A stretch of 64,000 nt of DNA from Candidatus Poribacteria bacterium. Its GTDB lineage: Bacteria > Poribacteria > WGA-4E > WGA-3G. A program made the translations under genes and the position numbers. The stretch covers positions 512,001 through 576,000 of the forward strand of contig OZ244048.1 of the NCBI GenBank assembly GCA_965215265.1. The letters are read 5' to 3'. A model generated the notes under the pieces. It saw nothing but the letters and a program-made list of their open reading frames with translations, had not been told where the DNA came from and ran no database searches. Positions 3,368-3,533 of this stretch are shown one piece after another (positions within the stretch are counted from its first letter, which is position 1; every line of letters begins with the position of its first letter).

Positions 3368-3458
3368 CATTTAATCGAAACCAGTTTGGAATTGAAAATT
3401 GTTGTGTTGTTTAATGCAATGCTGCATCTCTCTAATCGAACCAGTTTGGAAATTTACA
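3368..3458 (+). ncRNA. crRNA-like regulatory RNA (CreA/CreR-type mini-array: pseudo-repeat, 30-nt spacer, pseudo-repeat)
   Basis: CATTTAATCGAAACCAGTTTGGAATTGAAAA (3368-3398) and TCTCTAATCGAACCAGTTTGGAAATTTACA (3429-3458) resemble the array repeat. Spacer 3399-3428 matches 3517-3533 except at positions 6 and 12. Confidence 0.8.
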
Positions 3459-3482
3459 TAATCTTTAATTCTTAAAAAAAAT

Positions 3483-3533
3483 TTGACAATCTGTTTTTTT
3501 TATTATATAATATCCATTGTTATGTTGATTAAT
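3483..3533 (+). promoter_or_regulatory. Consensus sigma70 promoter with adjacent PAM and protospacer for the crRNA-like RNA
   Basis: TTGACA (3483-3488), 17 nt, TATAAT (3506-3511), then CCA (3514-3516) and TTGTTATGTTGATTAAT (3517-3533). Confidence 0.85.

Follow-up and report, generated by a model that had tools for sequence, protein, structure and literature searches.

The window, by which we mean the whole 64,000-nt stretch of DNA analysed here, carries a type I-B CRISPR-Cas locus in which cas8b, cas7 and cas5 of the I-B type occur together with cas3. A small gene, a promoter-like site and a gene fragment lie ahead of these effector genes, and a long CRISPR array lies behind them:

3566-3988, + strand: gene for a 140-aa protein whose family is small and restricted to the lineage, first gene behind the promoter proposed below to be repressed
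4015-4043, + strand: second promoter-like site, TGGACT-17-TATAAT with an upstream TG, 10/12, ahead of the cas8 fragment and cas8b
4084-4224, + strand: 46-codon ORF, an N-terminal fragment of a different large-subunit gene
4489-5901, + strand: cas8b1/cst1 (Cas8b1/Cst1, 141 bits, above cut-off)
5904-6935, + strand: cas7 (Cas7/Cst2, 196 bits, above cut-off)
~6929-7693, + strand: cas5 (Cas5b, 120 bits, above cut-off)
7712-9955, + strand: cas3 (Cas3 core, 280 bits, above cut-off)
12241-23579, + strand: main CRISPR array, 170 repeats, 169 of them identical

No cas6 belongs to the I-B operon itself; the genome encodes one ~5 kb upstream of where the window starts, beside type III-A genes. The 46-codon ORF shares 22 of 42 residues with the N-terminus of a 575-aa protein from a related genome, G123 (E 3e-13), and reads as the scar of an effector-module swap.

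Between the III-A and the I-B genes, directly after csm4, csm5 and CARF-family genes, the intergenic region holds a degenerate mini-CRISPR (psiR1-psiS-psiR2) and, just downstream of it, a promoter with a partial match to the spacer-like sequence psiS. The features of this region are:

~3196-3227, 3246-3277 and 3312-3344, + strand: three decayed repeat remnants, identical to the array repeat at 19, 21 and 23 of 30 positions
3205-3255 and 3329-3379, + strand: tandem duplication, copies 78% identical
3284-3314, + strand: candidate promoter of the mini-array (TTGACA, 19-nt spacer, TATAAT), read from the sequence
3368-3398, + strand: psiR1, a near-complete repeat copy, 25/30 positions identical to the array repeat, plus one inserted base
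3391-3398, + strand: last 8 nt of psiR1, ATTGAAAA, which would be the 5' handle after Cas6 cleavage
3399-3428, + strand: psiS, the putative guide, a 30-nt spacer with its pairing part at 3399-3415 (positions 1-17 without 6 and 12)
3429-3459, + strand: psiR2, 22/30 positions identical to the array repeat
3483-3511, + strand: target promoter, TTGACA (3483-3488), 17-nt spacer, TATAAT (3506-3511), a 12/12 match
3514-3516, + strand: PAM-like CCA, on the 5' side of the protospacer in the guide-identical strand
3517-3533, + strand: target (protospacer), located where transcription is expected to start; base-pairing of the guide would be to the opposite (template) strand

A preliminary description of this DNA had placed two degenerate repeat copies around a 30-nt spacer at 3399-3428, and we found all three there: two repeat-like copies, akin to the locus's own repeat, flank one spacer-like sequence beside the cas locus. 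The extent of the element needed revision, since the three remnants at 3196-3344 in the same intergenic region make the mini-array the 3' end of a longer degenerate array, the older part of which looks non-functional. The two flanking copies have decayed differently. PsiR1 ends in ATTGAAAA where the array repeat ends in ATCGAAAC, so that the handle of this genome has a final A instead of C, and its predicted fold keeps a small hairpin. Agreement of psiR2 with the repeat is confined to its first ~22 nt, the 3'-handle part with its CCA-NNN-TGG hairpin, while the last 8 nt are degenerate. Rfam returned 0 matches at E <= 1 for positions 3000-4600.

The site at 3284-3314 may serve as the promoter of the mini-array. 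It is missing from our promoter scan list because the scan accepts only spacers of 16-18 nt; its spacing is 18 nt in sister strains, one A at 3289 being absent from the contigs of runs X6 and X8, and in the orthologous loci of G099 and G083 a consensus promoter stands immediately 5' of psiR1.

The spacer starts TTGTTGTGTTGTTTAATG, and the genome at 3517 reads TTGTTATGTTGATTAATA. As the preliminary description had it, guide and target are identical at positions 1-5, 7-11 and 13-17 (15/15) and differ at positions 6, 12 and 18, with no similarity beyond. The match is far beyond chance. The pattern TTGTTNTGTTGNTTAAT, allowing up to one mismatch, turns up twice in the window, where 0.01 occurrences are expected, and none of 100 shuffles contained two or more; across both strands of the whole 4,833,177-bp genome the 15-position pattern occurs exactly twice, at the guide and the target, and the 11-nt seed pattern with a CCN flank occurs once. 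When 20,000 shuffled spacers were compared with 3460-3565, none reached 15/15 and the maximum was 12. The TTGACA-17-TATAAT promoter, also pointed out beforehand, is the sole 12/12 match among six promoter-like sites in 3100-4600, and the target starts six bases past its -10. In a close strain (contig of run X6, 3150-3976) we counted 7 substitutions and 2 indels, with guide, PAM and target all unchanged.

The genome contains 15 repeat-like places outside the main array, one of which is psiR1 itself. Their spacers gave one 15/15 match, with a GAA flank, and several 14/15 matches, only one of these with a YCN flank (CTT). Since about 0.4 such matches per spacer are expected by chance, we rejected the other orphan places as further regulators.

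The alignment of orthologous loci that the preliminary description had proposed as a check for guide-target covariation was carried out on this locus and eight others from different genomes of the same family, all of which share the order psiR1, guide, psiR2, promoter, PAM and target. A full psiR1 with the handle AT[ACT]GAAA[ACT] is present in 9/9 loci, and the first 22 nt of psiR2 are likewise conserved in 9/9, with the last 8 nt degenerate in 8/9. Cognate guides and targets agree at 130/135 pairing positions, each locus scoring 14/15 or 15/15, compared with a mean of 11.69/15 for the 72 non-cognate pairs. Only 10 of 200,000 permutations reached the observed cognate total, a figure that overstates independence because the nine loci are kin. 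The matched base takes two states at positions 1, 5, 15 and 17 and four states at positions 11 and 13. In contrast to these pairing positions, positions 6 and 12 vary in both guide and target and match in 0/18 cells. Position 18 matches in 3/9 loci, and positions 19-24 in 1 to 5 of 9. The consensus target promoter is held in 9/9 loci (the -35 of G017 is TTGCAT, and the spacer of G083 is 16 nt), and the distance of the target from the -10 ranges from 4 to 14 nt.

A hand count from the nine-locus table gave at least seven changes at positions 6 and 12, none of them making a match; the neutral probability of this is ~0.06, which is not significant.

Could the element be a non-functional relic, that is, an old self-derived spacer in a decaying array that still resembles its source sequence? 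An array in decay, with three more dead repeat remnants, is plainly visible in the region, and G043, G021 and G015 carry related guides whose target is degraded or was not seen in the ~330 nt read downstream, as a relic would predict. Neutral decay, on the other hand, would not hold 130 of 135 pairing positions over nine loci with joint change at six of them, would not leave precisely positions 6 and 12 unmatched in 18/18 cells, and would keep neither the flanking CC described below nor the split conservation of psiR1 and psiR2; gene conversion between the copies would have homogenised positions 6 and 12 as well. We regard a relic as very improbable. Much the same holds for the idea that a transcription factor binds two copies of its operator, one inside the mini-array and one at the promoter. 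An operator pair might in principle take the form of a T/G-rich direct repeat close to a promoter, and the 140-aa protein has no assigned function, but a protein site explains neither the 6-nt period of non-conservation between the copies nor why the first copy always starts exactly after the repeat 5' handle (9/9), nor why a conserved CC precedes the second copy only. This reading, too, has little chance of being right.

We also looked for further loci by a degenerate repeat-end-plus-guide scan of metagenome contigs, which returned 114 stretches. Of 80 fetched, 4 had repeat context, and all four were ordinary-looking arrays with a best periodic match of 9-10/15, a weak test in that the guide window was set one base early.

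The CCA noted earlier before the target is present at 3514-3516. Over the nine loci the target flank is CCT in four, CCA in two, CCG in two and TCA in one (CCN in 8/9), and the CC at -3/-2 is held in 8/9 loci while neighbouring bases change. The earlier suggestion that bacterial I-B systems use PAMs of the CCA/TCA type agrees with those published for Cas8b1 and Cas8b2 systems, namely YYD, YCN and CCN (PMC13199841; PMC8406132), and both the CCN and the TCA flanks seem to fit these. Searches with natural spacers yielded no protospacers from which a PAM could be read: the whole array had no match in 50,697 phage records, the 150 matches listed against 176 genomes of the phylum (317 further matches) were to other arrays only, and 2,510 spacers from 20 arrays of relatives found no protospacer in this genome, only the repeat itself and 19-21-nt chance matches. 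Among the 168 of 169 spacers shorter than 60 nt, compared with their own genome, there was one near-perfect self-match (36/37, flank AAC), which says nothing on CCN; the other self-matches were few, partial and within a repeated palindromic element.

The position of the mini-array directly after csm4, csm5 and CARF-family genes, and the fact that the sole nearby cas6 belongs to the III-A module, would be in keeping with a guide for the neighbouring type III-A (Csm) complex, acting on RNA. Against this, guide and mRNA share the same sense, which precludes pairing between them, a conserved PAM-like flank is a feature of type I rather than type III, and no csm gene was seen upstream in G123, G111, G102 and G083, where the neighbours are a cas6 and other genes. 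A III-A guide is the least credible of the readings considered here, and the initial preference for DNA binding over type III RNA targeting is borne out by the sense of the guide and by the four loci read upstream.

In all loci where the context is visible, the regulated promoter heads I-B genes. The first gene after it belongs to the 140-aa family in 5/9 loci, is a large-subunit gene in 2/9 and a cas6 in 1/9; in the remaining locus (1/9) the contig ends too soon to show it. An 8-codon ORF precedes the large-subunit gene in G106, and in G102 a second promoter copy without a target lies between target and gene. Loci L005-L007 have no mini-array within 700 nt of cas8b, so the element is dispensable.

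The reading that we favour, with a probability of roughly 80%, is that the element is a gene for a crRNA-like RNA of the CreR/CreA type, a degenerate mini-CRISPR that steers the I-B Cascade to repress its own promoter. That the guide programmes Cascade as a repressor had been proposed at the outset, and the common anatomy of nine loci, the covariation and the conserved CC support it. We infer the following course from the arrangement of the locus and from systems already published. Transcripts of the mini-array would arise from a weak promoter of its own or from read-through, and the Cas6 encoded with the neighbouring III-A genes would cut psiR1 and psiR2, releasing a guide that carries a handle of 8 nt at its 5' end and a hairpin handle at its 3' end. 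The I-B Cascade (Cas8b-Cas7-Cas5) would take up this guide, read the CCA PAM at 3514-3516 and open a short R-loop in which positions 1-17 pair with the template strand, apart from 6 and 12, which would be flipped out. Because pairing ends after position 17, Cas3 would not be licensed to cut, and the bound complex would occupy the transcription start of the consensus promoter and block it. This promoter would drive the 140-aa gene and, since the + strand has no terminator-like site in 3100-4600 and hence none before cas8b, probably the effector genes too. Cascade is thereby predicted to feed back negatively on the operon that encodes it, with relief when crRNAs titrate Cascade or when Cascade is inhibited; the main array would presumably supply the competing canonical crRNAs. 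The second promoter-like site at 4015-4043 has no guide match and could feed cas8b independently, so the feedback on the effector genes may be partial.

Several features were counted against the repressor reading: the inserted base in psiR1, the handle that ends in A rather than C, the 19-nt spacer of the mini-array promoter, the I-B operon without cas6, the promoter-like site at 4015-4043, the target-less promoter copy of G102, the guides of G043, G021 and G015, and loci L005-L007.

The 140-aa protein had no match in NCBIfam, Pfam, PADLOC or PHROGs and no usable match in a protein atlas; one relative had a PHROGs match of unknown function (E 0.0093). The family has 24 representatives among 1.84 billion sequences, occurs in 9/176 genomes and is found in I-B loci wherever the context is visible. 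Decayed copies exist as well: those of G093 and G083 have an in-frame TAA, G081 has a fragment, and G099 has an N-terminal part that is disrupted. A structure model from 22 sequences reached a pLDDT of 84.6 and was used, while one from 8 sequences (pLDDT 37.5) was unusable. Fold searches with the former gave no match at E <= 0.001 (best 0.024 in PDB and 0.012 in viral models), and the weak matches were mostly OB-fold proteins, so the modelled fold is possibly OB-like. The protein may be a toxin held down by Cascade, or it may have an accessory role.

These properties bear on the possibility that the locus is an addiction or sentinel module of the CreTA/CrePA type, in which the guide silences a putatively toxic 140-aa gene, and the gene is freed and growth stopped once Cascade is lost or is inhibited, for instance by anti-CRISPRs. 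Such a module would share its mechanism with the repressor reading and differ in purpose. The layout parallels the CrePA of Acinetobacter baylyi as reported, in which a mini-array partly matches a PAM-flanked site (PAM-like in the present locus) and a small CRISPR-confined protein gene follows downstream (10.1101/2024.01.05.574328); the tiny size of the family (24 representatives; 9/176 genomes), its restriction to I-B loci wherever these can be seen, the consensus-strength promoter ahead of the gene and the decayed copies in four genomes all point the same way. Set against this, the guide-promoter unit directly drives cas6 or a large subunit in 3/9 loci without a 140-aa gene, so Cas regulation suffices to maintain the unit, and the protein resembles no toxin, defence or phage family in sequence and only weakly an OB fold in structure. 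We consider an addiction module possible but unlikely.

The guide-plus-promoter unit serves two large subunits without detectable sequence similarity to each other. One might go further and read the guide-promoter unit as a portable regulatory head that survives effector-module swaps, the 140-aa protein as a hitherto undescribed protein toxin or sentinel of type I-B systems that Cascade represses, and the mismatches at positions 6 and 12 as kept on purpose. In that case the mismatches would cut a 17-nt direct repeat into 5-nt pieces, so that guide and target neither recombine nor pair outside Cascade, and the 140-aa protein would be analogous but unrelated to CreP. As a joint claim this is speculative, and we would be rather surprised if all of it held.

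Regulators of this kind are known. In the haloarchaeal I-B CreTA systems of Haloarcula hispanica and Halobacterium hubeiense, CreA is reported to direct Cascade to repress without cleavage, positions 6 and 12 being dispensable (PMC8501985), and the CreA of H. hispanica is described as repressing the cas8 promoter too (10.1101/2023.03.10.532045). The element described here resembles CreA, as presented there, in being a degenerate psiR1-psiS-psiR2 mini-CRISPR in a cas locus whose guide would pair, as that of CreA does, at 1-5 and 7-11 with a promoter site, PAM-flanked in CreA and with a PAM-like flank here (PMC8501985). It differs in that the system is bacterial, pairing runs on through 13-17, the PAM-like flank is CCN and not the TTC of CreA, and the downstream gene encodes a 140-aa protein, whereas the CreTA toxin is a small RNA with rare-codon features. 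CreR RNAs, for example those of Salmonella enterica I-E and type V-A, are described as autorepressors that sense crRNA load and anti-CRISPRs (10.1101/2023.03.10.532045). Like CreR in that account, the present element stands alone as a degenerate mini-CRISPR ahead of the effector operon, and its spacer partly matches a cas promoter, the CreR target adjoining a canonical PAM; as in both CreA and CreR, psiR1 retains the 5' handle and psiR2 the 3' handle (10.1101/2023.03.10.532045). Unlike the CreR examples, it belongs to another subtype and lineage and is mismatched at every sixth position, and its function is deduced from covariation while that of CreR comes from experiments. In the CrePA system of A. 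baylyi I-F, guide nucleotides 1-19 except the 12th are stated to match a CC-flanked site, and CreP is a 103-aa KilAC-domain protein of demonstrated toxicity (10.1101/2024.01.05.574328). Here, too, a small protein gene almost confined to CRISPR loci, as reported for CreP, lies just downstream (10.1101/2024.01.05.574328), but the 140-aa protein has no Pfam match and the subtype is I-B, not I-F.

A further precedent is the survey of Shmakov et al., which covered complete GenBank genomes of November 2021 and predicts I-B mini-arrays upstream of cas6 with a target between mini-array and cas6 and a typical I-B PAM (10.1101/2023.03.03.530964). The sixth position is often mismatched in that set, and an enrichment of mini-arrays is reported for composite loci of I-B and type III (10.1101/2023.03.03.530964). 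Poribacteria are not named in its main text, supplementary lists apart (10.1101/2023.03.03.530964), nor in the best-ranked literature on such regulators, again apart from supplementary element lists. CreA and CreR RNAs that pair at 1-5/7-11 next to a PAM and have mismatches at sixth positions have, as far as these sources go, been published for I-B, I-E, I-F and V-A. The novelty of the initial reading was overstated, as work on CreA/CreR and mini-array RNAs had already put the mechanism in print, together with the 1-5/7-11 register and the mismatched sixth positions; what is new is their occurrence in an uncultivated sponge-associated lineage, probably Poribacteria.

Knowledge of how such switches work is unchanged by this case. 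The nine guide-target pairs nevertheless form an unusually clean natural mutagenesis series, with compensated pairing positions and uncompensated flipped-out positions, which supports the mechanism without experiment and can calibrate searches for hidden guides. The small orphan family under the putatively repressed promoter merits a toxicity test. If our favoured reading is right, crRNA-guided self-repression of type I-B CRISPR genes would extend to an uncultivated sponge-associated lineage.

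The stretch under study is the intergenic region between the type III-A and type I-B modules of the window, which are laid out as follows.

3-791, csm4, type III-A module, at the window start
769-1926, csm5, type III-A module
1969-3144, gene for a TM1812-family DxTHG protein, type III-A module
3145-3565, intergenic region of 421 nt, between the III-A and I-B modules
3566-3988, 140-codon ORF, between the III-A and I-B modules
4489-5901, cas8b1/cst1, type I-B module
5904-6935, cas7, type I-B module
about 6929-7693, cas5, type I-B module
7712-9955, cas3, type I-B module
between cas3 and the array, cas4, cas1 and cas2, type I-B module
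12241-23579, main CRISPR array with 170 repeats, type I-B module

As the preliminary description had proposed, two degenerate copies of the array repeat flank a 30-nt spacer here, which opens with TTGTTGTGTTGTTTAATG. The first copy, psiR1 (3368-3398), has 25/30 positions in common with the array repeat plus one inserted base and carries ATTGAAAA at its 3' end, and the second, psiR2 (3429-3459), has 22/30, nearly all within its first 22 nt. Three further decayed repeat remnants lie upstream of this unit, and a promoter-like TTGACA-19-TATAAT (3284-3314) stands ahead of it. At 3517 the genome reads TTGTTATGTTGATTAATA, and we found that this target is identical to the spacer at positions 1-5, 7-11 and 13-17 (the 15 pairing positions), is mismatched at 6, 12 and 18, and has no likeness to it past position 18. 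CCA lies directly 5' of the target, and a 12/12 consensus promoter (3483-3511) ends about five bases ahead of the CCA-flanked site; identities, mismatches, flank and perfect promoter were all found where they had been described. The guide-target match is beyond chance, with two matches to the pattern in the window compared to 0.01 expected, exactly two occurrences in the whole 4.83-Mb genome, and none of 20,000 shuffled spacers reaching 15/15. Public reads of a close strain, covering 3150-3976, differ by seven substitutions and two indels, none of which falls in the guide, the PAM-like flank or the target.

Upstream of psiR1, the motif GAAAGA(A/G)CGTCTTAA is found at a distance of ~20 nt in several orthologous loci (L025, L027, L028, L024 and L043), and the window has two copies of it (3205-3255 and 3329-3379) inside a tandem duplication of 124 nt. 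The motif might be what is left of a leader, a promoter element or another guide. The public sequencing run X9 gave short contigs over 3256-3378 only, at a word depth of 400-1300 compared to about 2 for 3546-3805, and one contig links 3378 back to 3254. This depth may come from a strain with extra 124-nt copies, abundant RNA or low-complexity recruitment.

Orthologous loci were sought in two ways. When 112 same-family genomes were searched by BLAST with the intergenic region, most hits were ordinary arrays, and in six genomes the match extended through promoter and target. A pattern search across the phylum (176 genomes) found 15 places, spread over 14 genomes, compared to one for a reversed control pattern: seven were loci already found, two were new loci with a target (in genomes G106 and G017), three were related guides whose target was degraded or not seen in ~330 nt downstream (G043, G021 and G015), and three were ordinary array spacers. 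A tenth locus, in G053, has a CCT-flanked target behind a promoter; its contig starts inside the promoter, leaving the guide region off the contig.

Nine complete loci share one anatomy. In all nine, psiR1 is complete, with a handle of the form AT[ACT]GAAA[ACT], and is followed by a spacer of 30-40 nt and by a psiR2 that retains its first 22 nt, with the last 8 nt degenerate in 8/9. A consensus promoter is likewise present in 9/9, followed by 4-14 bases, the flank (CCT in four loci, CCA in two, CCG in two and TCA in one) and the target. Comparing orthologous loci for covariation, as had been suggested, we found that cognate guides and targets agree at 130/135 pairing positions, with 14 or 15 of 15 per locus, compared to a mean of 11.69 of 15 for the 72 non-cognate combinations. 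The observed total was reached in 10 of 200,000 permutations, a figure that is not a true probability since the nine loci are relatives and not independent; the qualitative covariation pattern is independent of this figure. Compensated changes occur at positions 1 (T/A), 5 (T/A), 11 (G/T/A/C), 13 (T/A/G/C), 15 and 17, and positions 6 and 12 vary in both guide and target, yet match in 0/18 cells. Position 18 matches in 3/9 loci, and positions 19-24 in one to five of nine. Compensated change at paired positions, together with independent change at every sixth, is what would be predicted for a Cascade-bound guide. Neutral decay, on the other hand, does not predict such a register of compensated versus independent change, gene conversion does not predict compensated change with independent positions 6 and 12, and a duplicated protein operator does not predict the every-sixth-position pattern. 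Judging from the covariation and flanks of the nine loci, the mechanism first proposed, a crRNA-like guide that makes the I-B Cascade a repressor of the neighbouring promoter, appears to be right.

This mechanism is most likely the published one of the CreA and CreR crRNA-like regulatory RNAs. Cas6 would free the guide with its 8-nt 5' handle, and Cascade would then read the PAM and open a short R-loop at the transcription start, pairing the guide with the template strand; the incomplete match would prevent Cas3 action, and transcription would be blocked. The CreA of haloarchaeal I-B systems pairs through positions 1-5 and 7-11 with a site beside a TTC PAM and tolerates mutation of position 6 or 12 (PMC8501985); unlike CreA, the guide here also matches at 13-17. 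It has also been reported that CreR RNAs autorepress I-B, I-E and V-A effectors, with the 5' handle retained in psiR1 and the 3' handle in psiR2 (10.1101/2023.03.10.532045); that in bacterial I-B loci a genome-wide survey found mini-arrays ahead of cas6 that have a typical PAM, frequent sixth-position mismatches and enrichment in composite I-B and type III loci (10.1101/2023.03.03.530964); and that a protein toxin is under such guide control in I-F (10.1101/2024.01.05.574328). Characterised Cas8b1/b2 PAMs carry pyrimidines at -3 and -2, with YYD in T. maritima, YCN in C. difficile and CCN in P. furiosus (PMC13199841; PMC8406132). All nine target flanks fit these pyrimidines and are PAM-like by comparison. 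Given this literature, we regard the element as belonging to the already published CreA/CreR kind, and its mechanism as not new.

cas6 is absent from the I-B operon (4489-12011) of G000, the genome of the window. The nearest copy (506998-507597 of the chromosome contig) lies ~5 kb upstream of the window and adjoins the III-A genes, and therefore one Cas6 probably serves both CRISPR systems and the mini-array; a second cas6 is at 1470251-1470940. The main array has a single 73-nt inter-repeat gap near its end (23009-23081), where a repeat copy has apparently degenerated or dropped out, and its final repeat has a terminal G in place of C. Seven orphan mini-arrays or single repeat copies lie on the chromosome contig (near 23953-24048, 935531, 2273093-2273187, 3923456-3923532, 4318526-4318691, 4463344-4463420 and 4751058-4751314). 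The leader promoter of the main array recurs at two of these places (near 24 kb and 4.75 Mb), and a search with the spacers of the seven yielded no convincing partial target flanked by YCN. Array spacers 18608-18644 and 12938-12974 have a palindromic core in common and both match their own chromosome, the matches at genome 623045-623081 and 3910388-3910714 being 36/37 with an AAC flank and 28/28 partial. The sequence next to the repeats is likewise AAC, and the T. maritima Cascade rejects it as a PAM. In the array of a related genome (L046, G064), spacers at places 11830, 12499 and 13101 of that locus match 24-28 nt of the reverse complement of the family CRISPR repeat, as though another array had been their source; a fourth (13578) has matches to repeat copies of either orientation.

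The 140-aa protein encoded behind the promoter gave no family match in NCBIfam, Pfam, PADLOC or PHROGs and four relatives in a word-indexed search; its family has 24 representatives among 1.84 billion and is present in 9/176 genomes of the phylum. Its genes lie in I-B loci wherever the context is visible, relatives of 209-221 aa have an additional N-terminal part, and decayed copies are found in G093, G081, G099 and G083. The structure model is confident (pLDDT 84.6), and a fold search with it gave no match at E <= 0.001; the weak matches are mostly OB-fold proteins, weak evidence that the predicted fold is possibly OB-like. The protein may act as a toxin repressed by Cascade, as an accessory protein that binds nucleic acid, or as neither of these.

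The guide-promoter unit heads two large-subunit types, between which the best BLASTP E value is 0.92; the second type has no NCBIfam match. G123 and G073 carry its gene intact (569-575 aa), and in G017 and G053 the gene behind the promoter shares its N-terminal motif. In the window, a 46-codon ORF (4084-4224) is an N-terminal fragment of this second type (22/42 residues identical, E 3e-13), and ~260 nt of non-coding sequence separate it from cas8b. Since it is a fragment of the other type, this ORF seems to be a scar left when the effector module was replaced directly behind the regulatory head. It has its own promoter-like site (4015-4043) and a ribosome-binding site.

A member of the 140-aa family comes first behind the promoter in 5/9 loci (G000, G123, G099, G102 and G083), with cas6, a large-subunit gene or both after it. 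cas6 is immediately behind the promoter in G073, and a large-subunit gene in two loci (G017, and G106 after an 8-codon ORF); the contig of G111 ends too soon for the gene to be seen. A search of the window's + strand from the 140-aa gene to cas8b found no terminator-like site. Since the second promoter-like site at 4015-4043 has no guide match, feedback on cas8b may be partial. In G102 (L024, ~2120-2240), the regulated promoter is doubled, the first copy with a CCT-flanked target and the second without, so that repression may not reach the downstream gene in this genome. As judged from gene order across these loci, what the driven genes have in common is their place at the head of the I-B effector operon.
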